Part shown: positions 4,054-49,700 of the stretch, one piece after another | How the letters are laid out: each line of letters opens with the position of its first letter | Position numbering within the stretch: position 1 is the stretch's first letter | Assembly (NCBI GenBank): GCA_963707365.1 | Contig: CAVPPI010000004.1 | Coordinates: 341,469 to 405,468, forward strand | Direction: 5' to 3' | Length of the DNA stretch: 64,000 bases | Source of the DNA: an uncultured candidate division Zixibacteria bacterium | Lineage (GTDB): Bacteria; Zixibacteria; MSB-5A5; GN15; FEB-12 | Notes under the pieces: generated by a model | Database searches by the model: none | What the model was told of the DNA's origin: nothing | The model's input: only the letters and a program-made list of their open reading frames with translations | Made by a program: the position numbers and the translations under genes

Positions 4054-4092
4054 AAGGCCGGCGTGTATAAACCACGCCGGCCTTTCTTGTTC
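4054..4092 (+). terminator. rho-independent terminator
   Basis: 12-bp stem AAGGCCGGCGTG (4054..4065) / CACGCCGGCCTT (4073..4084), loop TATAAAC, then a T-rich tail. It lies inside the N-terminal extension of track ORF 4063, which argues for the later start at 4216. Confidence 0.75.
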
Positions 4093-4215
4093 AAAACCGG
4101 GCACCATACTAGTTTTAGCTTGCCAATCGTTGGTGTAAACCATATATTCGAACCAATTTTTGTCGATAGTGGTCGTAACTTATTAACAAATATAGCCTTA
4201 ACGGGAGAATTACGG

Positions 4216-5154
4216 ATGGGAACAGGCTTGATTTCAGCCGTGATCGGTGTAGTAGGACTGGCCTTTGCACTGATTCTGTTCACCTTTATCAAGAATAAGC
4301 CGTCGGGAACCGATCTGATGAAGGAAATTTCAGGGGTCATTCACGATGGCGCCATGGTTTTTCTGAAGCGGGAATACTCAATTCTCGCTATCTTCGTCAT
4401 TCTGGTTTTTGCGCTTCTGGCGTGGAAGATCAGACTTGAGACGGGTTATGCCTTCCTGGGCGGAGCTGCTTGCTCAATGTTGGCCGGCTTTTTCGGGATG
4501 AAGGCAGCGACGCGGGCTAATGTTCGCACTACTGCGGCGGCTAAGGATCTTGGGCAACCTGCGGCTCTCTCAATAGCTTTCAGTGGCGGAGCTGTCATGG
4601 GGATGTCGGTAGCCTCATTGGGTTTGATCGGTGTTGGTGTCGCCTATCACTTTTTCGGTGACAACCCTCTCCATGCCAGTGTCATAAACGGCTTTGCCAT
4701 GGGCGCGTCTTCTATCGCCCTGTTTGCCCGTGTCGGGGGCGGCATTTTTACCAAGGCAGCCGATGTCGGGGCAGATCTGGTGGGTAAAGTTGAAGCGGGA
4801 ATTCCTGAGGATGATCCGAGGAATCCTGCCGTGATTGCCGACAATGTCGGTGATAATGTAGGCGATACTGCGGGTATGGGCGCGGATCTTTTTGAATCAT
4901 ATGTCGGTTCGGTTATCGCGACGATAGCAATAGCGGCTACTTCCAGCGCCATCCCCGATGTAGCCAGAGGGGCTCACATGCAGCTTCCGCTGATGATTGT
5001 CGCTTTCGGGGCAATAGCTTCGATTCTGGGGATTCTTTCGGTGTGGGTGTTTTCGAAGATGAATCCGGCTGCCACTCTTCGCCTTGGTTACTTATGTCGG
5101 CGCGGCTCTCATGCTTGCGGCTTCGTGGGTGATTATCGACAAGTTGGCCCTTGA
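4216..5154 (+). CDS. hppA: K+-dependent-type membrane-bound pyrophosphatase, N-terminal fragment (frame break near 5075..5085)
   Basis: [18 protein letters not shown].., [20 protein letters not shown], and [21 protein letters not shown] are canonical H+/Na+-PPase motifs. The start is moved to ATG 4216 (GGGAGA SD), downstream of the terminator. The tail ..[14 protein letters not shown] is out-of-frame sequence. Confidence 0.9.
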
Positions 5155-6199
5155 CAGAAAGATATTCTGGGCTATTCTGGCCGGTAATCTTGCCGGAATA
5201 GTATTGGGTTTGCTAACTGAATACTACACGGCATCGAAGCCGATCAGGCGGATAGCCGAGGCTTCACTTACGGGCTCAGCTACAAATATCATAGCTGGAC
5301 TGGCCGTAGGCATGCAATCAGTGTTGCTTCCGATTATTGTTATCTGCGGAGCTATCTACACCGGGTATTCATTCGCCGGGCTTTATGGTATCGGCATTGC
5401 CGGTGTCGGAATGCTGGCCACAATAGGCGTTACGATGTCGGTCGATGCTTACGGGCCGATTGCTGATAACGCCGGTGGTATTTCCGAAATGGCTGGTCTG
5501 GGTCCGGATGTTCGGGCTATAACTGACAGGTTGGATTCGCTTGGTAACACCACTGCCGCTATCGGCAAGGGGTTCGCTATCGGTTCGGCAGCTTTAACGG
5601 CGCTGGCATTGTTCTCCGCTTATTCATCTGCCGTCGGGCTGACCGTGATTAGCATTCTTGAGCCGAAAGTCGTGATAGGGTTTTTCATAGGAGGCGTTTT
5701 GCCGTTCTTCGTGGCAGCGCTTACAATGACTGCCGTGGGTAAAGCGGCCCAAAAAATGGTCGAGGAGGTTCGGCGTCAGTTCCGTGAAATCAAGGGTCTC
5801 ATGGAAGGCACGGCAAAACCGGACACCACAAAATGTGTTGATATCGCTACCAAGGGGGCTCTTCAGCAGATGATTGTCCCCGGTTTGACGGCGGTACTGT
5901 CACCGATTATTATCGGTTCTTTGTTGGGCAAAGAAGGTCTTGGCGGAATGCTGGCCGGGGCGACTATGTCGGGTGTCATGCTGGCCCTGATGATGGCCAA
6001 TGCGGGTGGCGCCTGGGATAACGCCAAAAAGTATATTGAAGCGGGCGCTCACGGGGGTAAAGGCTCCGATGCGCACAAGGCCGCCGTTGTGGGTGATACA
6101 GTAGGTGATCCTTTTAAGGATACCTCAGGACCGTCGATGAACATCCTGATTAAGCTTATGGCTATTGTATCGCTGGTGGTTGGGCCGTACTTATTTTAA
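5084..6199 (+). CDS. hppA: membrane-bound pyrophosphatase, C-terminal fragment
   Basis: [51 protein letters not shown] and [22 protein letters not shown] are all present. Ala in GNTTA-A is the residue that marks K+-dependent enzymes (Lys in K+-independent ones). Confidence 0.9.
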
Positions 6200-28392: not shown

Positions 28393-28509
28393 CCTGTATA
28401 ATTCTTAATCTAATCTCATCTTAGCATCAAAATTTCGATTGATTTTTCGATATTGATTATATATTATGGCCAGACCTGTTATCACAGGTTCACATATATT
28501 GTCGAAGTT

Positions 28510-28591
28510 GGTGGGGTTCCCGAGCGGCCAAAGGGAGCAGACTGTAAATCTGCCGGCGAAGCCTTCGGAGGTTCGAATCCTCCCCCCACCA
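28510..28591 (+). tRNA. tRNA-Tyr (GTA)
   Basis: Acceptor GGTGGGG/CCCCACC, anticodon loop CTGTAAA, long variable arm, T-arm GGAGG-TTCGAAT-CCTCC. Confidence 0.95.
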
Positions 28592-28616
28592 CTTTTTTTG
28601 TGCGTTCTCCTTCAAG

Positions 28617-29279
28617 CTAATTGAAAAGTGGATTCACATAAAGCGATAGTCTAATTCCAACTCCGTCATTGTTGTTATCACCTTCGAAGTTGATAAAGGA
28701 GCTGTTTGTAACGGACAAAGTATAAGCCCCGTGGTCGACATTATTACCACCAGGATAGTATGTCAGTTCAATGCCGGGGGTGAAAAGAATTCCTCTATCC
28801 AGTCCATCCAATCTCACAAAGAAGTAATCCGTGTTCGTCCTCAGTCCGATTGAAAACTGTGGGCTTAACTTATATTTTATGGAACTGTTTGGTGAAAATA
28901 GAATGAAGTCAATTGTACCGGGGTCATAAACAAATGACTCAGTTCGATCCGGACAGAATATCTTCTGAATCCCAAGTCGAATCAGCAGTACGGATAGATT
29001 AACCGGCGTCTGAAAACTGTATCGCCAGGTATCTTTTGGGTCCCGTTTTACAAGAGAATTCGGAAAGAATGAGAAGCCGTGCTCCAATTTGTCGTTGTGC
29101 GAATGATTGACGACATTAAAAGACAGATTGAATATTTGGGAAGTGTTGTTATACATATACCCGATGTCAATTACTAATCGACTTTTCTCACTATCAAAAG
29201 TATAGGATGAATCGGATTCTCCCTTTGCTGCCAGGGAAAGCCCCAGTATGATTATTGTAACAAGCAATGTTCTTTTCAT
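28617..29279 (-). CDS. putative outer-membrane beta-barrel protein, unknown function (low G+C)
   Basis: Start moved to MKRTLLVTIIILGLSLAAKG (ATG 29279). The sequence alternates Tyr/Gly-rich strands and ends ..GIRLSLYVNPLFN. It is visibly more AT-rich than its neighbours. Confidence 0.6.
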   Translation of the reverse strand: MKRTLLVTIIILGLSLAAKGESDSSYTFDSEKSRLVIDIGYMYNNTSQIFNLSFNVVNHSHNDKLEHGFSFFPNSLVKRDPKDTWRYSFQTPVNLSVLLIRLGIQKIFCPDRTESFVYDPGTIDFILFSPNSSIKYKLSPQFSIGLRTNTDYFFVRLDGLDRGILFTPGIELTYYPGGNNVDHGAYTLSVTNSSFINFEGDNNNDGVGIRLSLYVNPLFN

Positions 29280-29524
29280 TAAATTGAGCCTCCCCGTGGT
29301 TCGAATCGAGTTACGGCAGTATACATAATTTTGTGAAATCAGGAAAGCTTTCTGTAATTCGGTTCTCCATGTAGTTGATACTCGGTAGGGGAAATTCATC
29401 CAATGCCTGTTTGGCAAGACTGCCCGGGGCGAATATCGTTCGCTTCCAGCAAATCGACTTGCCTTGAGGAGCAAAATCGAGTAGCTTTTGGCCAAAATCC
29501 AACGTCCCGGCATCCGGAGGAACT

Positions 29525-37755: not shown

Positions 37756-40152
37756 ATGAAAGCGACAATACTCATTGTCATATTACTAATGCTCTCCACG
37801 GTTGCGGTGGCCGCGGACAGTAGTACTGGTGAAGGTCATATCAAGGGCCGTATCGAAGGTGTGATTGTCAATCAAAATGGCGCCCGACCGTTGGTTGGGG
37901 CGACGGTCTACCTGGTCGACAGGTTTGGCGGAGCGATTGCCGATGATGAGGGTCATTTTGTCATCAACAATCTTAGTCCCGGGACTTATGCTCTGCGTAT
38001 CAGCCACCTCGGTTTTGAGCCGTACCAGCTCGATAGCATCGTAGTAACCGGTGATGCGGCGGTGCAAGTTGAGATTGAGCTTGTGGAAAAGGCATATGAT
38101 ATCAAAGGCATCACTGTCACACCGGGCCGATTCTCTATCATGGGTACGGAATCGGCGGCCAGTCAGAGCCTTACGCGGAGGGAGTTGGAAACGACTCCTC
38201 AAGTAGGGGAAGATATATACCGCGCAGTAAGTCGTCTGCCCGGCGTGACGGCCGAGGATTTCTCCTCGCGCTTTTATGTGCGGGGGGGCGAATACGAGGA
38301 GGTGTTGGTCACCCTCGACGGGGTGCAGCTTTACGAGCCGTTTCATTTGAAGGAATTCAAAGGCGGCCTGTTCAGCGCTGTCGATGGCGCTGCCATTGAG
38401 AGTATTGAACTCATGACGGGCGGCTTTACCGCGCAGTATGGCGATCGGGCAAGTGGCGTCTTCAACATCACCAGCCATCACCCTCCCACCGGCAAGAGAA
38501 AAGTGTCAGCGGCAGTGAGTTTTATGAACGCCCGCGTTATGACCGAGGGCACCTTCGCCGAAAACCGCGGTTCGTGGATGGTATCGGGGCGAAGGGGTTA
38601 CCTCGATGTGCTTCTAAAAATAGCCGGCGAGGGGGAGAAACTGCGTCCGACTTACTACGATCTGATGGGAAAGGTCCAGTATCAGCTCAGCAACAAACAG
38701 ATTCTTTCGGCGCATGTGTTCCACGCCGGTGATCGTTTCAAAGTTATCGACAACGACGACAACGATGCTGATACGATTATCACATCGTACGACAATTCTT
38801 ATGCCTGGTTCAATCTCAAATCGCAGATGCATCAGCGACTCATGGGTCAGACCGTGCTGTCCGTTGGCGTGGTGAAACACAACCGCTACGGCTTTTCATA
38901 CTGGCGAAGTCAGCAGATTGAGGATGCCAGGGTCGACGACGGTCAGGAGTTTACTGTTCTGGGGGGGAAGTCGGACTGGGAGTTAGAGATTACGGATAAG
39001 CAGTTGATTCGGATGGGATTTGAAGCGCGGGCTTTGTCGGCCGACTACAATTACTTTGGCACCGATCAATTCTACTACTTCGGTGATGACGGCGTGGTCG
39101 AGTTGGACCGCATCGATACTATCAGTTACAGTCTGGAACCATCGGGTAACCAGATAGGCGCCTACGTGTCCTATCGAACGCAGGTCGGACCGCGGCTGAC
39201 TGTGGAATTCGGTGAACGTTTTGACCGTCACTCATATACCGGCGACGAGCATTTCTCGCCGCGCTTGAATTTCGCCTATCAAGTCGATGAATCCACAACC
39301 CTTCGCGCCGGCTGGGGTTATTTTTACCAGGCTCAGAGAATCGATGAGTTGTTGGTGGGGGACAACATGACGGAGTTCATGCCGGCGGAGAGGGCCGAAC
39401 ACAAAACTGTAGGTCTTGAGCACGATTTCGGCACCGGTGTGCGTATGCGCATAGAAGCATACCATAAGAAATATACCGACCTTAGACCCGAAGCGCGCAA
39501 TACTTTCGATGCCCTGAATGTCTTCCCGGAGTTTGAGGATGATCGCATTATTGTCTATCGTGACCACGCGACAGCCAAAGGTCTGGAGGTCTTCCTTAAA
39601 CGCGAGACGGGTAGCAAGTTTACCTGGTGGGCCAGCTACGCGTACGCGAAGGTCGAGGATAGCATTTCTCGCATCTTATATCGCAAAGTCTCCGGTCCCG
39701 ACGGTCTTGAGGTCACTTACAACGACAACTACCCCAATCCCCACGACCAGAGGCATACCGTATATCTGGATATGAGTTACAGGCCTACACTAAAATGGCA
39801 ATTCAACCTTGCCTGGAGCTATCACAGCGGATGGCCCTACACTGGCGTCTTTCTGGCTTCAGGCATTAACGAAAACGGTGATCCGGTCGTCTGGCTGAAC
39901 CAGGACGAATTGCTGGCGGAAAATTACCCGGACTACAACCGGATCGATTTTCGCATTAACCGATACTTCGACATCTGGGGCGGGCGTCTGACAGCCTTCC
40001 TTGAGTTGATCAATGTTCTGGGGAACGACAATGTTCGGGGATACGATTACGATATCCTATCGGGGCCCAGCGGACTGTATATCGAGCAGGACCCCGAAAA
40101 CGCTTTTGGAACGCTTCCCGTACTCGGGGTGAGTTTCAGTCTGAACATGTAG
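37756..40152 (+). CDS. TonB-dependent receptor with N-terminal CarboxypepD_reg domain
   Basis: Signal peptide. ..GATVYLVDRFGGAIADDEGHFVINNLSPGTYALRISHLGFEP.., a plug domain (..RAVSRLPGVTAE..RGGEYEEVLVTLDGVQLYEPFH..), and a ~550-aa barrel. Confidence 0.9.
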   Translation: MKATILIVILLMLSTVAVAADSSTGEGHIKGRIEGVIVNQNGARPLVGATVYLVDRFGGAIADDEGHFVINNLSPGTYALRISHLGFEPYQLDSIVVTGDAAVQVEIELVEKAYDIKGITVTPGRFSIMGTESAASQSLTRRELETTPQVGEDIYRAVSRLPGVTAEDFSSRFYVRGGEYEEVLVTLDGVQLYEPFHLKEFKGGLFSAVDGAAIESIELMTGGFTAQYGDRASGVFNITSHHPPTGKRKVSAAVSFMNARVMTEGTFAENRGSWMVSGRRGYLDVLLKIAGEGEKLRPTYYDLMGKVQYQLSNKQILSAHVFHAGDRFKVIDNDDNDADTIITSYDNSYAWFNLKSQMHQRLMGQTVLSVGVVKHNRYGFSYWRSQQIEDARVDDGQEFTVLGGKSDWELEITDKQLIRMGFEARALSADYNYFGTDQFYYFGDDGVVELDRIDTISYSLEPSGNQIGAYVSYRTQVGPRLTVEFGERFDRHSYTGDEHFSPRLNFAYQVDESTTLRAGWGYFYQAQRIDELLVGDNMTEFMPAERAEHKTVGLEHDFGTGVRMRIEAYHKKYTDLRPEARNTFDALNVFPEFEDDRIIVYRDHATAKGLEVFLKRETGSKFTWWASYAYAKVEDSISRILYRKVSGPDGLEVTYNDNYPNPHDQRHTVYLDMSYRPTLKWQFNLAWSYHSGWPYTGVFLASGINENGDPVVWLNQDELLAENYPDYNRIDFRINRYFDIWGGRLTAFLELINVLGNDNVRGYDYDILSGPSGLYIEQDPENAFGTLPVLGVSFSLNM

Positions 40153-40419: not shown

Positions 40420-41121
40420 ATGAAAAAAACAATTATCTTCTTCGCCCTGGTGACTATCACAGTCGTGATTTTACTGGTTGGCTGTGAGAAGGAAAAGATC
40501 GTGGAATCGACGGAATATATCCGCGAGGTTGAGTTTCAAACGGACACCGTCTTTCGAGTGGATACCGTTATCGATTCTGACGGAAGCCCCGTGCAGACAA
40601 TCGACACCGTTCTGATACAGGATACTGTTGAGGTATCGGACACGGTGACTGTGACCGAGACGGACTACATCTACGATACCACCATGATCTACGATACGGT
40701 GACAGTGCAGAACAATTATTACGACACTGTCGTGGTAACGGACACCGTGGAGACACTTCGATGCTACGCAAATGAATATTTCGCGTTTGCGGCGATGCAG
40801 AATTACTGCGATCCTCTGGTAATTCAGTTTATTAATCAGGAGTTCGGTTACACCGATGGATGGATCTACTATTTATCGATGTTCCAGAGCGACGTAGCTG
40901 TGGTGTCGTCCAATGTCTATGACATCTACGGTTATTGTGACTACTGGACACCTGACTGGTCCGGTTACTATCCGCTGGAATATTACTGGCGTCTGACGTT
41001 CACCGGCGGCGACCCGACAGATTTGGCCAACTGGCAGATGGCTGAACCGCCGACAATGGCAGCCAGCCGTACACCCGGCATCAAACTTGTCCCGTCTGAT
41101 GCACGAGTTAAATTGCGCTAA
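40420..41121 (+). CDS. lipoprotein of unknown function with D-T-V repeat region
   Basis: Lipobox LLVGC. Nine D-T-[VT] triplets occur within ~75 aa (..TDTVFRVDTVIDS..TIDTVLIQDTVEVSDTVTVTETDYIYDTTMIYDTVTVQNNYYDTVVVTDTVE..), followed by an aromatic-rich C-terminal half. Confidence 0.65.
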   Translation: MKKTIIFFALVTITVVILLVGCEKEKIVESTEYIREVEFQTDTVFRVDTVIDSDGSPVQTIDTVLIQDTVEVSDTVTVTETDYIYDTTMIYDTVTVQNNYYDTVVVTDTVETLRCYANEYFAFAAMQNYCDPLVIQFINQEFGYTDGWIYYLSMFQSDVAVVSSNVYDIYGYCDYWTPDWSGYYPLEYYWRLTFTGGDPTDLANWQMAEPPTMAASRTPGIKLVPSDARVKLR

Positions 41122-41280
41122 GCACGTCATCCGACGTGGCCTGATTGTCCTGATTCGAATCATTCGGGGGGCGTTTGCCGCCCCCCGACTAATATCCCAA
41201 CCAATTCTCATTCAACCCTTTGTGTATACCGGAGTACATTCCCCGCGGCCGCCCGGGTTATCGTCGGTTTCTCCACATCA

Positions 41281-41302
41281 ATGTATACATTATTGTATAC
41301 AT
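41281..41302. promoter_or_regulatory. tandem palindromic boxes (candidate operator)
   Basis: ATGTATACAT (41281..41290) and TGTATACA (41294..41301), with starts 12 bp apart, ~150 bp upstream of the decahaem cytochrome start. Confidence 0.3.
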
Positions 41303-41451
41303 TGTGGCGATATTGGACCGCCGTGGTCATAAATTATGAGTTTTGTCCTTTTTGTTGTTGACATCGAAATGTGTTTTAGCCTTTTTTGTAACCAAAGATA
41401 TTATTTGGCTAATGCTGAGGAAACGTGTGTCTATCGAATTGGGGGTGATGC

Positions 41452-41760
41452 ATGGCGCCGTATATATCAGTGGCTCGTAAATGTGCCCTGTCTCTAATAG
41501 TCGTCTCCTGTTATTTCTTAATCTTCTGTTCCGCGTCGTATGCGGACCTGCCTGATGTGGCCGATGAAGATTGTGCCGCATGTCATGAAGATTTCGACAG
41601 GAAATTAACCTCAACCGCCCACAGGCTTTCCTCAACTATAGATAAACCTTCTATGGCAGTTGCTTGCGTGTCCTGTCACGAGGGCTCAACAGCACACCTG
41701 GACGATCCCGGCACGTGGGACAATCGGCAATCCGGCGGTAATGGAACCGGTCGGCGTTGA
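41452..41760 (+). CDS. MtrA/DmsE-like decahaem c-type cytochrome, N-terminal fragment (frame break ~41700..41757)
   Basis: Signal peptide (..CSASYA/DL) and haem motifs CAACH and CVSCH. The tail ..WDNRQSGGNGTGRR is out of frame. Confidence 0.8.
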   Translation: MAPYISVARKCALSLIVVSCYFLIFCSASYADLPDVADEDCAACHEDFDRKLTSTAHRLSSTIDKPSMAVACVSCHEGSTAHLDDPGTWDNRQSGGNGTGRR

Positions 41761-42394
41761 GAAGGTGTGTACGGGCTGCCACGAAGCACATCTGCAGGCC
41801 CATACGGCCGGGTTTGACCCGCATGTCGGGTTGGATCTATCGTGTACTTCGTGTCACTCAATCCATGGAGGAAGTCGCAATCTCCTCATCGATGAGGCCG
41901 GTGGTTTTTGCGGAACATGCCATGTGGCCGTAGTTAATGAGTTCCGAAAGAGATCAAACCATCCGTTGACCGGCCAGAACGTGGGTTGTATCGACTGCCA
42001 TAGCTTTTCTGCGAGCAGTGAGCCCGATTACGGACACGGCAGCAATGCCACTTGTTTCAATTGTCACCCGCTGGAGAGTGGTCCGTTTCTCTTTGAACAT
42101 GAAGCTGCCAACTCGTTTACGCCCGAAGGCGGCGGGTGCGTGGCCTGTCATTCGCCTCATGGTAGCTCGAATGAACGTCTCCTCAATCAACCCGACAATC
42201 GCCTGTGTCTTCAGTGTCATGGGGCACCGCCCGGTCACCTGACGGCGCACGATGGCGACCTGGCTGGCTATGCTTGTATGGACTGCCACAGCGATGTACA
42301 TGGATCATATGATAATCTCTATCTGCTTGATCCGCAGCTTGGCAGCAAACTCGGAAGCGGTCCGGATGGTTGCTTCTGCCATTACTACCGGTAG
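41660..42394 (+). CDS. MtrA/DmsE-like decahaem c-type cytochrome, C-terminal fragment
   Basis: Eight CXXCH motifs (CTGCH, CTSCH, CGTCH, CIDCH, CFNCH, CVACH, CLQCH, CMDCH). Blocks such as ..KRSNHPL..CIDCH and GPFLFEH are collinear with MtrA as I recall it. Confidence 0.8.
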   Translation: MLACPVTRAQQHTWTIPARGTIGNPAVMEPVGVEKVCTGCHEAHLQAHTAGFDPHVGLDLSCTSCHSIHGGSRNLLIDEAGGFCGTCHVAVVNEFRKRSNHPLTGQNVGCIDCHSFSASSEPDYGHGSNATCFNCHPLESGPFLFEHEAANSFTPEGGGCVACHSPHGSSNERLLNQPDNRLCLQCHGAPPGHLTAHDGDLAGYACMDCHSDVHGSYDNLYLLDPQLGSKLGSGPDGCFCHYYR

Positions 42395-42409
42395 GAAGGT
42401 GGCTAATAT

Positions 42410-43981
42410 ATGAAGAAACACTACCATAGGATTCTTGTCGCCGCAGTGGCCGTTGTGTTTGCGCTTTCGGGTGCGGCCGGTGCTCAGAACGGCGAGTACG
42501 ATGGAACCATCAAGGCCGGATACGTTTTTGTGGACACTGAAGGCAACAAAGGTGTCAACCAGAATACATTTAATCTCTACCAGGGTCTTGATCTGTCCCT
42601 GGAACGCTTCTCATACCGTTTCGACAACGGCCTGAATCTCGCCGCCAATATTCAGAATGTGGCCCAGCGAAGTCGCAACCTGGCTCTCAGTGCTACGAAA
42701 TCAGGTCAGTGGGGAGTAGGGTTCAACCACAACGGCTACCGGCGACCGTACGATTTCAACGGTGATATCGAAACGAAGCGTTATCGTAGTAATGGTCAGT
42801 TGTGGTGGCGGGCCACACCGTGGGCCAAGTTCTATGGAGGACTTGGTGTGCTCAAGAAAAGTGGCGATATGCTAAACCTGTTTGAGCCGGAAATGGACGC
42901 TTCCGCCAACGGGATTGATTACTCGTTATGGTCTTATCACGGCGGTGTGACCGTTCAACGAGACCGCAAGGTCGCGCAGGTAGAATTTCGGCGTTCGACG
43001 TTCACCGACGAAATCGATTTCAATAACGATCGCTCGACTGTGCGTTTCCGGGCTTCAGGTTCAATGCCCATCCCGGACTACGAGGACCTGACAGTCAACG
43101 CCGGTTACCAGTTTTATCGTAATGCCTTCGAAAGACGCATCGATACGCTCAAGGCTCACACGTTCTGGGGGGGAGCTCGCTTTGCCAACCGTGATGGATA
43201 CCTGGTTCGTTACAGCTTCATCTTTGACCGGGCCAGACGCACCGGCGATCTCACCGATGCCGACAACATCACGCACGCCGTTTATATCGGTAAAAGTTGG
43301 TTGCGAAAGGGCGGTGTGACAGTCGGATACCGGTATCGGATGAACGATGATGCTCTCGATGAACTTACCGGTAACGGTTATTTCGTTACGGCCTGGTTGC
43401 GGCCGGTTGAGGATTTCAGTCTAAAGGCAGGCTATGGCTCCGATGAAATGGACGTTGATGCGGGCCGGACGCTAACGGGCAAGACCGAACGAAGTCGTGG
43501 CTGGGTATCAGCGCGCTATCTTTCGGAATATGGATGGGTACGCGTCAAAGTACAGAATCGACAGACGGATAACGAGGATATCGGCAGTTCGGCTGATTTC
43601 ACCCGGTTCGCAACCGACCTGTCGGTGGAATTGTCCAAGTACGGAACGGCGACCGGATCTTATTCATACGGCACAGGCGAGTACAAAAACAGCGCCGGTG
43701 AATTCGAATATAATGAACATATAATAAATGGAGATATAACCTCAAAAGAATATCGCAATTTCACATTCGGGTTCGGCGGCATGTATCTTCGCAGCCAGCG
43801 AGATCTGAACGTTGAGAGTTTCTCGGTTCGATTCTCCGGTCGGTACCGGTTTGAAAGCGGACTGGGACTCGAATTCGAATATAGTTCGCACAACTTCGAT
43901 AATCTCGATGATGCTTCGCCCATATACAGCGAATACTACACCGACAATGTCGTGCGAATCGGTCTCTCTTATGATTTGTAA
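42410..43981 (+). CDS. outer-membrane beta-barrel protein (putative porin partner of the decahaem cytochrome)
   Basis: Signal peptide ..LSGAAGA/QN and no Cys. Repeated amphipathic strands (VTVGYRYRM, YFVTAWLRP, GWVRVKVQN, FTFGFGGMYLRS, FSVRFSGRYRF, VVRIGLSYDL-end). It is positioned between two multihaem cytochrome genes. Confidence 0.6.
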   Translation: MKKHYHRILVAAVAVVFALSGAAGAQNGEYDGTIKAGYVFVDTEGNKGVNQNTFNLYQGLDLSLERFSYRFDNGLNLAANIQNVAQRSRNLALSATKSGQWGVGFNHNGYRRPYDFNGDIETKRYRSNGQLWWRATPWAKFYGGLGVLKKSGDMLNLFEPEMDASANGIDYSLWSYHGGVTVQRDRKVAQVEFRRSTFTDEIDFNNDRSTVRFRASGSMPIPDYEDLTVNAGYQFYRNAFERRIDTLKAHTFWGGARFANRDGYLVRYSFIFDRARRTGDLTDADNITHAVYIGKSWLRKGGVTVGYRYRMNDDALDELTGNGYFVTAWLRPVEDFSLKAGYGSDEMDVDAGRTLTGKTERSRGWVSARYLSEYGWVRVKVQNRQTDNEDIGSSADFTRFATDLSVELSKYGTATGSYSYGTGEYKNSAGEFEYNEHIINGDITSKEYRNFTFGFGGMYLRSQRDLNVESFSVRFSGRYRFESGLGLEFEYSSHNFDNLDDASPIYSEYYTDNVVRIGLSYDL

Positions 43982-44022
43982 TCAAAAAGTGGTGGCTATA
44001 CTGTTGAAAACAAGGAGGAAAG

Positions 44023-44121
44023 ATGGATAAACTCAAGTATGTAGCGATTGGCCTGGCGTTGCTGCTGTTGGTCCTGGTCGGTTGTGAACGGGAGATATCG
44101 AGCGGAACGTCCAAACGGTAG
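44023..44121 (+). CDS. lipoprotein signal-peptide fragment of the downstream cytochrome gene
   Basis: MDKLKYVAIGLALLLLVLVGCEREISSGTSKR*, with lipobox LVGC. The downstream cytochrome frame is open from 44088, so a single indel near 44088..44105 joins the two. Confidence 0.6.
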   Translation: MDKLKYVAIGLALLLLVLVGCEREISSGTSKR

Positions 44122-44144
44122 ACAACGGTAGCGACGATTGTCTG

Positions 44145-45074
44145 GTGTGTCACAGTGGTTATCTTGATCAGGCGCAGGGCGAATGGGCTAACTCTATTCA
44201 TGCGTCCGGCAACTATATCGATTACACTAACCGGGGCGGCTCCGACTGCACCAAATGTCACAATGAGGAAGGTTACCTGTCTTTCCTGGAGACCGGCACA
44301 CTTCCCGATGTGCCGTTTGAGAGTGTTAGTGCCATTGGATGTTTCACCTGCCACAATCCGCATGAGACAGGTACGTTGGAGCTGAGGCAGACGGAGGCTG
44401 TGATGCTGATTGACGGAGTCATGTTTGACCACGGCACCGCTAACCAGTGTGCTGCCTGTCATCAATCGCGGTATGACCCGGCTGATATTGTGGCCGATAT
44501 TTCAGTCAACAATCGCTTTGGACCTCATCACGGTAATCAGGGTGATATGATTCAGGGGACTAATGGATACGAGTTCCCCGGCGAGAGTTATGAATTTCCG
44601 CTTTCACCTCACGCTAATCAAGTGACCAATGCGTGTATCGGATGCCACATGGGTGATCCGCAAACACACGTTGGCTATAAGCTGGGCGGGCATTCGTTCA
44701 ATATGACGATTGAAGGTTCGGACGAAACGCTCGTGGATATATGCGCCGCGAGCAGCTGTCACGGCGAAGATGTTGAGGAATACGATTTCCTGGCCGACGA
44801 GGACTATGACCTCGACGGTGAGATCGAGGGATACCAGACTGAAATTCTGGGTATGCTCGATTCGCTGGCGATATTACTTGAAGGTCAGGGAGTACTGGAG
44901 GACGGCACCCCGGTTTCCACCACCATTGCCGATCCTCATGTGGCCGGGGCGCTCTACAACTGGGTGTTTGTCGAGGAAGATCGGTCTGAGGGCATTCACA
45001 ATTTCAACTATGCCCGGAGTCTTCTGGAAGCCTCGATTGATTATGTTTCGAATTTGCCTGTTAATGGCACGTAG
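44145..45074 (+). CDS. multihaem c-type cytochrome (5 CXXCH plus one CX4CH-like site), probable surface lipoprotein
   Basis: CLVCH (straddling the listed GTG start), CTKCH, CFTCH, CAACH, CIGCH, and CAASSCH at 44742..44762. C-terminal ..SEGIHNFNYARSLLEA.. is of a type seen in many multihaem cytochromes. Confidence 0.8.
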   Translation: MCHSGYLDQAQGEWANSIHASGNYIDYTNRGGSDCTKCHNEEGYLSFLETGTLPDVPFESVSAIGCFTCHNPHETGTLELRQTEAVMLIDGVMFDHGTANQCAACHQSRYDPADIVADISVNNRFGPHHGNQGDMIQGTNGYEFPGESYEFPLSPHANQVTNACIGCHMGDPQTHVGYKLGGHSFNMTIEGSDETLVDICAASSCHGEDVEEYDFLADEDYDLDGEIEGYQTEILGMLDSLAILLEGQGVLEDGTPVSTTIADPHVAGALYNWVFVEEDRSEGIHNFNYARSLLEASIDYVSNLPVNGT

Positions 45075-45098: not shown

Positions 45099-45128
45099 AA
45101 GCCCCTTCTGTGCGGAAGGGGCTTTTTT
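45099..45128 (+). terminator. rho-independent terminator after the cytochrome cluster
   Basis: AAGCCCCTT (45099..45107) / AAGGGGCTT (45116..45124), running into T6. Confidence 0.8.
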
Positions 45129-45245: not shown

Positions 45246-45334
45246 TGCCGGAGTGGTGGAATTGGTAGACACCAGGGACTTAAAATCCCTTGCTCCGTAA
45301 GGGGCGTGCCGGTTCGAGTCCGGCCTCCGGCACC
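45246..45334 (+). tRNA. tRNA-Leu (TAA)
   Basis: Acceptor GCCGGAG/CTCCGGC, anticodon stem AGGGA/TCCCT with loop CTTAAAA, long variable arm, T-arm GCCGG-TTCGAGT-CCGGC. The 3' CCA is encoded. Confidence 0.95.
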
Positions 45335-45442
45335 AACTATGTTGGTTTTTCCAACGACGATTCCCTAATAGACCGAATATTGAGCAACTGAGACGACTAC
45401 GTATTAAGTCAGTATTGTATTCGATTAAGCCGACACAGTCGG

Positions 45443-46897
45443 TTAAGACTCAAGTAGAGCGGAATCTGACCCCAGAAACCAGGAAATCCAGCGCTGAACA
45501 TCGTTGCGTCTGACCTCTGATCGAAGCATCCGCATGCGATTCTGGCGCTCCTCCGGACTCATGATGTAAGCAGCATAGATGGCATCGGCCGTGCCCTCAA
45601 GATCGTACGGATTGACCATCAAAGCCCCTTTTGACAACTGCTCCGCTGCGCCGGCGAATTCTGATAAAATCAGCACGCCATTGTTTTCGATCGAACTGGC
45701 GCAGTATTCTTTGGCCACCAGATTCATACCGTCGCGCAAGGGAGTTATAAGAGCAATCTCGCAGGCCCGATAGTAGCCGAGCAACTGTGTGCGGTCCAGT
45801 TCCCGGAACATATAGTGGATAGGGACCCAGCCATGCTGGGAAAAGCGGCCGTTGATACCTCCGGCCAGTCCATCGAGATATTCCTTGAGATCGCGGTACT
45901 CCGGTACTTTGGTTCGACTCGGGACAACGATTTGAACCAGCGATACGTTTTGGTGAAGCTCCGGATACTTCTCCAGCGCGCGCTCGAAAGCCAGAAATCT
46001 ATCGGGAATGCCTTTGGTGTAATCGAGGCGGTCCAGTCCCAGAATGAGTTTGCGGCTGGGTAGATTCTCGTGCACAAACCAGGCGGAGTCGGCCACTTCC
46101 GCAGACCGGGCGTGGTCGTTGAATTCGTTAAAATCGATACTGATAGGGTAGGTGCCGAGTTTTATGGTGCGGCCTTCGAGCTTGATTTCGGTCTGGTAGC
46201 GGTAACCCCGGACAGATGCCTCAGGGATCAGCGCTTTGACGCACTGGACGAAATTCCGTCGGTCGTGGTTGGTTTGAAAGCCGAGATGGTCATATTTCAA
46301 CAGTGCCTGGATAATCTCTGTCCTCCACGGCATTCGTCTGAGGAGATCACACGATGGGAAGGGGATGTGCAGGAAGAAATTCAGTTCAACACTGACGCTC
46401 ATCTCACGCAGATAGTGAGCGACCAACATCAGTTGGTAGTCGTGTATCCATACGAAATGTTCGGGTGCTGCATGTTTGGCAATCTCAGTGGCAAATCTCT
46501 CGTTGACGGTGTTGTAGACATCCCAATTCCCAGCATCGAAAGTAGCATAACCTATCAGATCATGAAACAGCGGCCAGATAGTCTGATTTGAAAAGCCGCG
46601 GTAGTACTTCTCGATTTCCTCATCACTGATTAAGACTGGCTTTAATTCGTATCCTTGCTCCTGGCTGTGCGTTTCAAGAAGCGGTACCACTGGAGCTTCC
46701 GGTCCACAACCCGGCCAGCCCATCCATGTGCCGTGATTGGCTTTCATCAGGGGGGCAAGTGCTGTGATCAGTCCGCCGGAACTGGCGTTTACCTTCCAGT
46801 GACCATCTATCTGGTCTACGATGATAGGTAGACGGTTGGAGACGATGAATAATTTTCTTTCCGGCTGTTGCAATTGAACCTCCTGAATTTGGGTCAC
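45443..46897 (-). CDS. otsA: alpha,alpha-trehalose-phosphate synthase (GT20)
   Basis: ..[24 protein letters not shown].., ..[11 protein letters not shown].., ..[12 protein letters not shown].., ..[14 protein letters not shown].. Confidence 0.93.
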
Positions 46898-46995
46898 GCA
46901 GCAACTAATTGTGGATTACTATGCGAGATGCTTTGCAAGTCCTGACCTGTCTATGATACGTATTTTTTAAGGGAAACGCAAACGCTCTGACACGT

Positions 46996-47769
46996 CTAAG
47001 GCCAGCGCTGAAGAAATTCACTCAGTTCATCAGGTGGATGTAGCCACAGGTCAGCCGCGGTGGGGCGTAGCTCAGGACGTACTAAGACACTGAGGCCATG
47101 TTTCTTAAGAGTGCCAAAGGCATCTTCATCGGTAAGGTCATCGCCGAGGTAAGCTCTTGGCGTTGCGTCGTCGGTCTGTTCGATAAGATTCATTACGGGT
47201 ATCGATTTATTAGTGCCGGCCACGCGAATTTCGATGCCACCATCAAAACTATGTAGCTCAAGGCCGGAACTCTCAATCCCCGGCTGCCATCGGTCGAGAA
47301 CGGTACTGCGGATTGTTTCAGCCTTGTCCTGCGGAAGACCTCTCCAATGAAAAGCGGCTCCCGACGGTTTAAATTCACAAAGGTCCACCAGGCTGTTGGC
47401 GCTTATCCACGAATACAGCTCGCTCAGTCTTTCGCTTACAATATCGGGCAGCGGCGCTACGGAGTGTTCACCTTCGGGAGTCAAACGTTCCAGGCCATGG
47501 CAACCCCACAGTTCGGGTAAGCGGTCGAATTCAAGCAGATTTTTGAGGCTGTCGATTGACCGTCCGCTGATTATGACCACTCGCGTTTTCTCGCTGCTGA
47601 AAAGGCGCTCCAGCACCGGGGTAATTTCGGGATAGGGGAAAGCACGATCTCGCTCTGTGGTAAACGGCGACAGAGTTCCATCATAGTCAAGCATCAGTAG
47701 TGGTTTATCAGAAGTCGCGAGGCTGCGATAGAATGAATCGAGCGGAAAGTCGGTGTTCAAAAGTTTCAT
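46996..47769 (-). CDS. otsB: trehalose-phosphatase (HAD)
   Basis: LMLDYDGTLSPF (HAD motif I), ..VVIISGRS.., ..GDDLTDEDAF.. Confidence 0.9.
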   Translation of the reverse strand: MKLLNTDFPLDSFYRSLATSDKPLLMLDYDGTLSPFTTERDRAFPYPEITPVLERLFSSEKTRVVIISGRSIDSLKNLLEFDRLPELWGCHGLERLTPEGEHSVAPLPDIVSERLSELYSWISANSLVDLCEFKPSGAAFHWRGLPQDKAETIRSTVLDRWQPGIESSGLELHSFDGGIEIRVAGTNKSIPVMNLIEQTDDATPRAYLGDDLTDEDAFGTLKKHGLSVLVRPELRPTAADLWLHPPDELSEFLQRWP

Positions 47770-47778
47770 CGTATACTA

Positions 47779-49020
47779 TTAAACGCGTATAAGCGTATTC
47801 TCCAAGCCAACCCTGAAGCCGAGCATCAAAGTCAGATATTCCCTGAGGTGTCTTGTCAGCAGGAAATTATCTCGGACGAACTGCTTTGCTGTGGTTCCGA
47901 TTGTCACCATACGTTCGGGTTGTCTGAGCAATTCGCGGATGCGCAAGGCTGCTCCTTCGGGTGAATCGACAGTATAGCCGGTATGATGATTGTGTATTTG
48001 CAGACGAATACCGCCAACGTTACCGCCAATGACAGGTTTGCTTTTCCACATGGCCTCGGTGACAGTCAGGCCGAATCCCTCTTGCAACGATTTTTGTATT
48101 ACTATTGTGGATGCTCTCTGGAGAGCATTTATCGTTCGATGGGCATCGCTGGGAAGCTGTAATACGAAGATCCTGTCATTTCCTTGAGCGAATTCCATCA
48201 CTTCCCGATAGACGGCATCACCTTCGGGGTCATCGCTCGCTCCGCCCCCGGCGAGAACGAGTTGGGCATCCACGGCTCCGTTGAGAAGGTTGAAAGCCTC
48301 GATAACTCCAACCGGATCTTTGAAACGGTCAAAGCGCGAAATCTGTGTGAGAATCGGTATTTTCGATGACAGTCCGAATTCTTTAACGGTCTTATCTACC
48401 TCCCGCTGGGGCAGATCACGATTCTTTTCGCTCAGGGGATCGATACTCGGTGCGATTATGAACTGTGGATGGGGGAGACTTTGCGCAAAAATCGGCATCG
48501 AGAAAATGCTGGCATCGAAGCCATCGACCTTTGTCTTGAGATAACTCCACACTTTTCGGTATGGATGACTGACATCGATGTGACATCTCCATATCCATTT
48601 GCCTTTGCGGTTGGGGCAGAGGTCGAGCAAGTGCGCCGGTTGCGGGTCGTGTATGAATACAAAGTCAGCCTCTTCGAGGATAGGTCGCAGGCGCTCAGCA
48701 TTAGCCGCAACAGTCTCTTCGTAGGTTTTTATCATAGATGGTGTGAGTGCTACGTGGTTGCCCTGAAGGCCGTTGTGGAAAGCTTTGGTGACGTTGAAAT
48801 ATTCATCGTGTCCGTCGACGACCTCCCATGATGCGTTCAGTCCGAGGTCATTCATGAGCGGAATCAGCCAGTGCAGGATTTCCGCAACCCCTCCGCCGGC
48901 TTTTGTGGAGTTTACATGCACCACGCTGGCCCCGGCGAGATTGTTTGCCAGTTGTTTTAACTGCGAGACAGCTACCGCGCCGGCAACTGGTTCGTATGTA
49001 TCGAGTGATCTGCCGTTCAT
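47779..49020 (-). CDS. treT: trehalose glycosyltransferring synthase-like GT4 glycosyltransferase
   Basis: Collinear with archaeal TreT as I recall it: VHVNSTKAGGGVAEILHWLIPL..FNVTKAFHNGLQGN, WIWRCHID, PSIDPLSEKN, ITQISRFDRFKDP, LQEGFGLTVTEAMWKSKPVIGGNVGGIRLQI. Confidence 0.8.
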   Translation of the reverse strand: MNGRSLDTYEPVAGAVAVSQLKQLANNLAGASVVHVNSTKAGGGVAEILHWLIPLMNDLGLNASWEVVDGHDEYFNVTKAFHNGLQGNHVALTPSMIKTYEETVAANAERLRPILEEADFVFIHDPQPAHLLDLCPNRKGKWIWRCHIDVSHPYRKVWSYLKTKVDGFDASIFSMPIFAQSLPHPQFIIAPSIDPLSEKNRDLPQREVDKTVKEFGLSSKIPILTQISRFDRFKDPVGVIEAFNLLNGAVDAQLVLAGGGASDDPEGDAVYREVMEFAQGNDRIFVLQLPSDAHRTINALQRASTIVIQKSLQEGFGLTVTEAMWKSKPVIGGNVGGIRLQIHNHHTGYTVDSPEGAALRIRELLRQPERMVTIGTTAKQFVRDNFLLTRHLREYLTLMLGFRVGLENTLIRV

Positions 49021-49700
49021 GCTTGAGCCTTTTCCGCGATGGGCTTGACCGCGTTGATGAGACTGTTTTTAAGTTCCGGCAATGTCAGGTAATAGAAATC
49101 TATATTCTTGAAAGTCTCGATAAGTTCTTCACAACCCTTTCCAAATCCCTGACACCAGGCGGTGAAGTCATCCACTCTGTTCGCGGTGCGTCGTCTTGCC
49201 TCGATAAAGTGATAATATATCGAACTCCAGCTCATCTTCGGAAGAACCTCAGCCAGCTCGGCAGGATTCTGAAGCACAATACCGCTGCTGAAAACAACTG
49301 TGGCTGCCCGCATGAAGACGAAATCGTCTCCTTTGGGGACCGAGGGGATATACGGCAGTTCGCTCAAGCGGTCATCGATAATTTCAACCACGGTTTCCCG
49401 CAAACGCTCAAATGATTCGAATTTGTACGGGTTCAGTATTCCCAGTCGTTCGGCGAGTACGCGGTCTCTTAGAAATCTGGCCGACCAGACGGCAAAGTCG
49501 TTTCGGAACTCGGGGTCATCGAAAGACGGGCGAACGAGCGTTTCACTGAAGTGGTGAAACAGGCAATCTTCCGGGCAAACCGCGATTCTTTCGCGTAGCT
49601 CGCGCAGGTTAACGGCGGTGTCGACTCCGCCCATTCTGGTAATCAGCGTGCAGTCTTTGACTTCAAAGGGCATATTAATTTTCTCGGTAGGCATGCTCAT
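49017..49700 (-). CDS. conserved hypothetical protein with an internal two-fold repeat, translationally coupled to treT
   Basis: Its stop overlaps the treT start by 4 nt. Two ~95-aa modules align: ..NLRELRERIAVCPEDCLFHHFSE..NDFAVWSARF.. with ..NPAELAEVLPKMSWSSIYYHFIE..DDFTAWCQGF.. Confidence 0.65.
   Translation of the reverse strand: MSMPTEKINMPFEVKDCTLITRMGGVDTAVNLRELRERIAVCPEDCLFHHFSETLVRPSFDDPEFRNDFAVWSARFLRDRVLAERLGILNPYKFESFERLRETVVEIIDDRLSELPYIPSVPKGDDFVFMRAATVVFSSGIVLQNPAELAEVLPKMSWSSIYYHFIEARRRTANRVDDFTAWCQGFGKGCEELIETFKNIDFYYLTLPELKNSLINAVKPIAEKAQA

Follow-up and report, generated by a model that had tools for sequence, protein, structure and literature searches.

Does a cluster of multihaem cytochrome genes in an uncultured Zixibacteria bacterium encode a complete conduit for electrons across the outer membrane, and how does it relate to the conduits already described? 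The cluster consists of three genes, here called A, B and C, and lies in a 64-kb stretch of a 1,048,606-bp contig (the window, meaning all 64,000 nucleotides analysed). A first-pass annotation, made from the sequence alone, had read it as a porin-cytochrome module with an MtrA-like decahaem protein, a barrel and a lipoprotein cytochrome. We find that an electron conduit across the outer membrane, built on an MtrAB-type core and known here from genes and predicted folds alone, is the best explanation of the operon and a likely one. Zixibacteria are widespread in sediments and aquifers. To our knowledge, none has been well studied in culture, and what they contribute to the cycling of iron and manganese has been deduced from 'mtrAB' matches alone. 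The locus defines the actual Zixibacterial module as a conserved three-gene unit.

A conserved three-gene operon

The features of the operon are the following.

41452-45074 (+): operon A-B-C, three closely spaced genes
41357-41362 (+): -35-like TTGACA with a T-run before it, about 90 nucleotides upstream of gene A
41452-41712 (+): gene A, first part, with a Sec signal peptide and haem motifs 1-2 (CAACH, CVSCH); start and signal peptide agree with the closest relative, L025
41713 (+): extra A breaking the frame of gene A, CCCGGC[A]CGTGGG against CCCGGC-CGCGGG in a DNA alignment with L025 and L001
41714-42394 (+): gene A, second part, in the next frame, with haem motifs 3-10 and a C-terminal tail; matches TIGR03508 and MtrA (6R2Q_A)
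42371-42382 (+): CFCH in the tail of gene A, a contracted C-x-CH motif and putative 11th haem site
42410-43981 (+): gene B, Cys-free barrel of 523 amino acids with a signal peptide; AlphaFold2 (AF2) fold with a Foldseek match to MtrB
44023-44103 (+): gene C, first part, with a lipoprotein signal peptide and the lipobox LLVLVG-C (Cys21 at 44083-44085)
44104-44105 (+): two extra bases breaking the frame of gene C, TCGAGC[GG]AACGTC against TCGGGC--AACGTT in the same alignment
44106-45074 (+): gene C, second part, with five CXXCH, CAASSCH (44742-44762) and a C-terminal three-helix bundle with GIHNFNY; matches OcwA
45099-45124 (+): intrinsic terminator with an 11-bp stem, 6 GC pairs and a T-tract

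As far as spacing, ribosome-binding sites and a single terminator can tell, A, B and C form a self-contained operon. Gene B starts 15 nucleotides past the stop of A, with the ribosome-binding site GGAAGGTGG ahead of it, and gene C starts 41 nucleotides past the stop of B, behind AAGGAGG. No hairpin comparable to the terminator at 45099-45124 was found at the A/B or B/C intergenic junctions. Upstream, the preceding lipoprotein gene terminates in its own GC-rich hairpin. When the upstream regions of six related loci are aligned, TTnTTGTTGAC is the only long invariant block, about 90 nucleotides 5' of A; the TTGACA at 41357-41362 may act as the promoter element of the operon. It is the combination of the 15- and 41-nucleotide gaps, the single terminator, the upstream hairpin, the conserved TTGAC box and flanks that vary between loci that sets the three genes apart as a unit. 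Their density of haem motifs is far above chance: 15 of the 17 CXXCH motifs found in a six-frame translation of the whole window fall inside genes A and C.

The unit is not particular to this genome. Barrel B has 41 close homologues in a large protein collection, nearly all of 506-534 amino acids (a few entries are truncated and one has 572), and the named ones come from Zixibacteria or related uncultured lineages. We collected the DNA of 25 related loci on long contigs, three of which are duplicates; several closed chromosomes of metagenome-assembled genomes (MAGs) are among them. The genes flanking A-B-C vary between these loci. The three genes themselves are intact and in the same order in all 22 loci with sufficient contig, mostly labelled Zixibacteria: a protein with ten CXXCH (about 305-325 amino acids) is followed by a barrel of about 520 amino acids and then by a lipoprotein cytochrome of 344-390. 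Hence, A, B and C co-occur strictly, and the A-B-C order that the first-pass annotation had proposed for a porin-cytochrome conduit is retrieved throughout, next to the MtrA and MtrB matches described below. Failure of the trio to occur together in relatives had been named as a point against the conduit, and the loci do not show it.

In the window, genes A and C are each interrupted by one frame break. We located both by aligning the DNA with that of L025 (the closest relative, whose barrel is 81% identical) and L001. Deleting the extra A restores DDPGRGTIGNP in protein A, matching the relatives, and deleting the two extra bases gives EREISSNVQ in protein C, collinear with EREISGNV of the relatives. 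The descriptions of A and C below refer to the repaired proteins; whether the breaks are real is weighed further on.

Predicted wire, barrel and outer cytochrome

After repair, protein A has 313 amino acids, a Sec signal peptide and the ten CXXCH motifs listed in the first-pass annotation. It matches TIGR03508 (DmsE decahaem) with 155 bits over model positions 3-256 of 258. It also matches the solved MtrA (6R2Q_A) with E = 2e-25, residues 35-286 against 62-324, with collinear haem motifs in the aligned span. These sequence matches establish that A is homologous to MtrA and agree with the identity and the collinear haem blocks proposed at the outset. In a homologue search, A falls in a subfamily of 101 members (at least 44% identity, 180 bits), separated by a score gap from canonical DmsE/MtrA proteins (at most 37% identity, 95 bits).

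The subfamily differs from the canonical proteins at its C-terminus. All 101 members carry a conserved tail of about 28 residues, LLDPxLGxK...C-x-CH, in which the cysteine site takes the form CXCH in 80, CX4CH in 20 and CXXCH in one; the window protein has CFCH. Among the 19 proteins listed outside the subfamily, 17 are canonical decahaem proteins that stop a few residues past the last VHGS and lack the tail, and the remaining two have 16 haems and another kind of extension. Since three spacings interchange at the same site, the tail is a good candidate for haem attachment. Outside the motifs, 12 histidines are conserved in the subfamily, which would suffice for bis-His ligation of eleven haems. 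Judged from these sequence patterns, A is probably an undecahaem protein with its 11th haem at the tail site. The earlier count of exactly ten motifs thus stands for CXXCH and had overlooked the conserved CFCH. CX4CH is an accepted haem motif, and a natural C-x-CH site with covalent haem, a precedent for the CFCH of A, was reportedly found by Ferousi and colleagues in 2019 in a tetrahaem cytochrome of the anammox bacterium Kuenenia stuttgartiensis. That protein is said to be small and periplasmic, whereas in A the motif is found at the very C-terminal end of an MtrA-like wire, and in some homologues CX4CH or CXXCH takes its place. PMC11492766, which cites that work, writes the contracted motif of the anammox tetrahaem cytochrome, with its one-residue spacer, as CXCK. 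Should the C-x-CH of A bind haem, the contracted motif would have a second natural setting, this time in an environmentally widespread family. In the structure of MtrCAB, haem A10, the last in sequence, lies at the outer-side interface with MtrC (PMC7198977), and therefore, by homology, the extra haem site of A would lie at the outward end of the wire.

Protein B has 523 amino acids, a signal peptide and no cysteine, as annotated. We modelled it with AF2 from an alignment of 36 sequences. The model (predicted local distance difference test, pLDDT, 87.6) has 26 beta-strands, of which strands 2-4 are short, and its longest loop has 14 residues. When the fold was compared with the PDB by Foldseek, the top match was MtrB (6R2Q_B; E = 3e-16, template modelling score 0.78); the 22-strand TonB-dependent transporters and receptors follow at a distance of seven orders of magnitude. 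The same strand count, with the N-terminal strands shorter, is seen in the solved MtrB (PMC7198977). Because B models with 26 strands, its predicted cross-section equals, by geometry, that of MtrB and would be wide enough to sheath a decahaem. A barrel with too few strands or too narrow a lumen had been named as what would speak against a conduit, and the model shows neither. The B gene stands directly beside an MtrA-like gene in the window and in all related loci. The first-pass annotation had also remarked that the barrel is shorter than MtrB, PioB and MtoB. This is correct as to size, as 523 amino acids fall outside the pattern of 650-850 amino acids with long loops of MtrB/PioB, but the model attributes the shortness to trimmed loops and not to fewer strands.

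Relatives of B give traces of the same affinity. Weak matches to PF11854 occur in nine of the 36, TIGR03509 is touched by one of the 36 (E = 1.7e-3), and a more distant relative, P0229, passes the gathering threshold of PF11854 (27.8 against 23 bits). When the B family was searched as a profile against 1.84 billion representatives, we obtained 171 clusters, and the full-length proteins among the best 150 have 504-557 amino acids. Judging from its model, B would belong to a family of its own on the fringe of the MtrB/PioB superfamily, held to a narrow range of lengths, with the same barrel and trimmed loops. The barrel escapes standard MtrB models in most members and, as a result, marker-gene surveys will under-count the module. 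With a barrel that has about 125 residues fewer than the solved MtrB and a possible 11th haem in its wire, the module is an attractive minimal scaffold for structures and for conduit engineering.

Two side observations concern a pair of Geobacter proteins. One relative of B weakly matches NCBIfam NF041027, 'GSU2204 family CXXCH-containing (seleno)protein' (E = 2.4e-5), and A scores 136 bits (cutoff 325) on the model of the Geobacter GSU2203 decahaem family. The A-B-C module and the adjacent pair GSU2203-2204 of Geobacter may be distantly related.

Protein C has the lipobox, the five CXXCH (CLVCH, CTKCH, CFTCH, CAACH, CIGCH), the CAASSCH and the strong terminator behind it that had been described. 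The six sites are conserved across its relatives. The lipobox L-x-G-C is present in 22 of 22 sequences and is followed by (E/D)R(E/K)(I/V), as in 21 relatives. The CX4CH column reads as a canonical CXXCH in three of them (L013, L014 and L018), which supports a sixth haem in C. The earlier estimate of five to six haems instead of ten agrees with this number of sites. It does not follow that C is a shortened MtrC: neither its sequence nor its model is MtrC/OmcA-like. C scores 21.7 bits on TIGR03507 (OmcA/MtrC), whose cutoff is 209; its 31.6 bits on PF22113 are confined to a 50-residue stretch of haem motifs; and no MtrC, OmcA or UndA chain is among the Foldseek matches of C in the PDB.

By profile and by predicted fold, C is instead related to the OcwA/NrfA lineage. 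A C-family profile run against the PDB sequences retrieved first OcwA (6I5B_A; E = 8.7e-7), in an alignment that includes five haem motifs and the C-terminal helices, and then NrfA (about 1e-3). The model of C (pLDDT 80) has three long C-terminal helices, and its best Foldseek match was also OcwA (E = 2.4e-5), followed by the S-layer undecahaem protein of Carboxydothermus (6QVM) and then by NrfA. In these comparisons, haems 2-6 of C, several distal histidines and the G-x-H-N three-helix bundle align with OcwA haems 5-9. The Gram-positive metal reducer Thermincola potens carries OcwA on its cell surface as a terminal reductase, and haems 5-9 of OcwA superimpose on the NrfA core (PMC6703420). 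The outer cytochrome of the module is thus of a type so far linked to Gram-positive metal reducers.

Proposed conduit and competing readings

In the mechanism that we propose, A would reach the periplasm, acquire its haems to become a multihaem wire and be inserted into B. The latter, a 26-strand barrel with loops of at most 14 residues, would insulate the haem chain across the outer membrane. The 11th haem would most likely be held by the C-x-CH at the C-terminal, outward end of A. C, a lipid-anchored hexahaem cytochrome, would most likely be placed where the barrel opens at the cell surface. Electrons would come to it from the last haem of A, which may be the extra C-terminal one, and go on to extracellular acceptors, for example Fe(III) or Mn(IV) minerals, humics or partner cells. 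The same chain could work in the opposite direction. We infer that A, B and C form a complex and that C is exposed at the surface; the motif patterns suggest that the CXCH site of A and the CX4CH site of C are occupied by haem.

Several observations weigh against this reading. Searches with family models gave a mixed outcome with respect to the identities first proposed: the 155 bits of A are below the curated TIGR03508 cutoff of 192.2, and the window protein B matches nothing in Pfam or NCBIfam, including the MtrB/PioB models, even at E <= 10. The B-family profile has no match at E <= 10 among the PDB sequences, and canonical MtrB/PioB proteins (650 amino acids or more) are not among the best 150 of the 171 clusters. 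Hence, the link between B and MtrB is that of a predicted fold and of marginal matches to hidden Markov models in relatives. The N-terminal third of the C model is of low confidence, and the residue after the lipid-modified cysteine of C is Glu or Asp throughout the family. Two of the three frameshifts detectable in 64 kb sit within the 3.6-kb locus. Finally, neither break lies in a homopolymer, and the reading frame is kept across the G7 runs of B and of the TonB receptor gene.

These last points bear on whether this genome makes a conduit at all. If both cytochrome genes are truly frameshifted, the locus would be a decayed pseudo-operon that was lost recently. The shortened open reading frames (ORFs) do stand as such in the public record of the source contig (P0311 with 244 amino acids and P0042 with 309). 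The concentration of two of three frameshifts in 3.6 of 64 kb has roughly p = 0.01 under random placement, and a homopolymer slip would account for neither break when G7 runs are correct. The third frameshift points the other way. It splits the gene of an H+-translocating pyrophosphatase (4063-6199, +) into the overlapping ORFs 4063-5154 and 5084-6199, which correspond to positions 1-265 and 281-645 of Pfam PF03030, with the break at about 5084-5154. A housekeeping gene is therefore split too, and the frame breaks are not specific to the A-B-C locus. Genes A, B and C show no stop codons and no indels beyond the two noted. All haem motifs are kept, and so are the family-invariant positions of the repaired proteins (60/60 in A, 32/33 in B and 54/54 in C). 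All 22 relatives are intact. In addition, the megabase-scale MAG contig suggests a long-read assembly, for which residual indels are a typical error. On balance, we favour an assembly error with fair confidence, as far as sequence can tell, and regard a real and recent inactivation as unlikely but worth keeping in mind. Programmed frameshifting is rejected, as the breaks occur in no relative.

For an intact conduit, the direction and the substrate of electron flow are matters of inference. On sequence grounds, the reverse direction is equally possible, because MtrAB-type cores do not sort by direction in phylogenies and MtoA and PioA form no separate clade (PMC8805035). The module could take up electrons from Fe(II), reduced minerals or a syntrophic partner, as MtoAB and PioAB do, and C would then be an extracellular oxidase. 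Iron oxidation was indeed suggested for the Zixibacterium RBG-1 by Castelle et al. (PMC3903129). However, no dedicated outer lipoprotein cytochrome is part of the MtoAB and PioAB modules that have been characterised, and metal reducers use the closest solved relatives of C, OcwA and 6QVM, as terminal reductases (PMC6703420). Neither objection is decisive, and taking all this together we see electron uptake as a tentative possibility.

The place of C at the surface may also be questioned. C could be a lipoprotein that faces the periplasm, in the inner membrane or in the inner leaflet of the outer membrane, and feeds A, so that A and B alone contact the outside. In E. coli, an acidic residue after the lipidated cysteine is a signal for inner-membrane retention, and such a residue is what the C family has. 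NrfA, a relative of C, is periplasmic, and B has no long external loops with which to hold a partner. The signal may be uninformative, however: the unrelated upstream lipoprotein also begins with CE, and an acidic residue may be common at this position in this organism. Moreover, periplasmic relays that serve MtrA-type proteins are, where known, soluble, C has its nearest solved homologues on cell surfaces, and A has its extra haem site at the outward end, where a partner is expected (PMC7198977). We consider a periplasm-facing C somewhat improbable and retain the surface cytochrome in what follows.

The most doubtful of the readings that we weighed is that C is mainly a catalytic extracellular reductase of a soluble substrate (nitrite, hydroxylamine or a similar oxyanion), which A and B would feed as DmsEF feeds DmsAB. 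It draws on the alignment of haems 2-6 of C with OcwA haems 5-9, which are superimposable on the NrfA core, and on the slow reduction of nitrite and hydroxylamine by OcwA (PMC6703420). In the pairwise alignment, the conserved GPHH of C falls on the only HH doublet of the aligned OcwA segment. With an inferred numbering offset, this doublet probably corresponds to HH 380/381, the pocket above haem 5, whose coordination is open (PMC6703420). C has no CXXCK, the motif of the catalytic haem in NrfA, and its six invariant non-motif histidines are enough for bis-His ligation of all six haems; the nitrite turnover of OcwA is also very low (PMC6703420). We hold this reading to be improbable.

If the conduit on an MtrAB-type core is correct, a bolder proposal may be put forward, with little confidence for now. 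Zixibacteria and their relatives would have a distinct, streamlined class of conduit, in which an undecahaem wire with a C-x-CH haem at the outer mouth of a minimal 26-strand barrel is plugged into an OcwA-type hexahaem lipoprotein. Were this true, a 'Gram-positive' OcwA/NrfA surface reductase and a 'Gram-negative' MtrAB core would have merged into one machine. C might in addition retain a haem that binds substrate, and the module would then act as an extracellular catalytic reductase beyond mineral contact.

Known conduits and the neighbourhood of the operon

The closest characterised system is MtrCAB of Shewanella (6R2Q); among solved proteins, A and B match its MtrA and MtrB best. Both have a wire with ten collinear CXXCH in a 26-strand barrel with short N-terminal strands (modelled in the case of B), and a lipoprotein cytochrome as third component. 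They differ in several respects. The barrel has 523 amino acids here against 649 residues in the solved MtrB chain, and none of the predicted loops of B exceeds 14 residues. The gene order is A-B-C instead of C-A-B. C has six haems and an OcwA/NrfA-type predicted fold, not the MtrC/OmcA fold. Finally, A bears the extra C-terminal C-x-CH tail, and both A and B remain under the curated family cutoffs.

An MtrA-like gene beside an MtrB-like barrel, with no MtrC/OmcA homologue, is also found in MtoAB and PioAB and among the MtrAB homologues of RBG-1 (PMC3903129). The latter belongs to the same phylum as the present locus: homologues of MtrA and MtrB, and none of known extracellular cytochromes, were reported for it in 2013 (PMC3903129), and later surveys repeat 'mtrAB' for Zixibacteria (PMC9769843, PMC7005843). 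Our module differs in that a lipoprotein hexahaem cytochrome is the obligatory third gene. RBG-1 is absent among the 21 species loci compared here.

The Geobacter conduits OmaB-OmbB-OmcB, ExtABCD and ExtEFG share the three-part logic, and in ExtABCD and ExtEFG small penta-haem outer-membrane lipoprotein cytochromes (ExtC and ExtF) are encoded beside the porin gene (PMC6148476). Their periplasmic cytochromes are, however, octa- or dodecahaem proteins that are not MtrA-like, and their porins are predicted to have 18-21 membrane strands (PMC6148476). The NCBIfam and Pfam scans revealed no sequence relation of B or C to these conduits.

C resembles OcwA (6I5B), the S-layer undecahaem protein of Carboxydothermus ferrireducens (6QVM) and, distantly, NrfA in its haem motifs, distal histidines and three-helix bundle. 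It has six haems, against nine in OcwA and five in NrfA. OcwA is part of a Gram-positive cell wall, is not a lipoprotein and has no porin partner. For its part, C is devoid of the c554-like N-terminal module and carries one additional haem site at its N-terminal end instead, and CX4CH is the last of its haem motifs.

The first-pass annotation had been unable to place this combination in a described subtype. We likewise found no matching description in the literature, be it of a compact 26-strand barrel family, of C-x-CH in MtrA-like proteins or of an OcwA-like partner for MtrAB; our coverage is incomplete and earlier descriptions are possible. The general function of the module is predictable and partly published, and its architecture is a distinct and testable hybrid of components associated with Gram-negative and with Gram-positive bacteria.

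Several related loci have further large multihaem cytochromes adjoining A-B-C, whereas the window has none. They are encoded in L011 (9916-12900, -), L023 (1151-4003, +), L015 (4857-6380, +), L024 (752-2308, +) and L017 (1330-2643, -). These additional cytochromes comprise proteins with 21 and 19 CXXCH, proteins of about 510 amino acids with 6 CXXCH and a CX3CH, and one 9-haem protein. They may be periplasmic or extracellular partners.

Two genes lie directly upstream of the operon, as the first-pass annotation had noted.

37756-40152: TonB-dependent receptor
40420-41121 (+): lipoprotein of 233 amino acids

The lipoprotein has the lipobox LVGC-E, a repetitive N-terminal half rich in Thr, Val and Asp, a C-terminal domain that contains cysteine, and a weak NCBIfam match to BamJ (E = 0.012). 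It is found directly upstream of the module in the closest relatives only (L001, L002/L006 and L005). We considered both genes as parts of the module and rejected them, as they are kept in the closest relatives only and are separated from A by the hairpin and the conserved promoter box. A palindrome at 41275-41296 was discarded for its lack of conservation in relatives.

A tRNA-Leu(taa) gene lies at 45247-45335 (+), about 120 nucleotides past the operon terminator. The varied neighbourhoods of A-B-C across genomes could suggest mobility. An origin as a genomic island, which the tRNA-Leu and the variable neighbourhoods brought into consideration, was set aside: there is no GC anomaly and there are no flanking repeats in the window. 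Just downstream is a trehalose cluster (45443-49700, -), unrelated to the conduit, with an OtsA-like GT20, a trehalose phosphatase, a TreT-type trehalose synthase and a DUF5752 protein. Finally, beside a tRNA-Tyr (28510-28592), a stretch of about 1 kb (28617-29513, -, and 28400-29460) holds a single ORF of 297 amino acids with atypical codon usage and no Pfam match.

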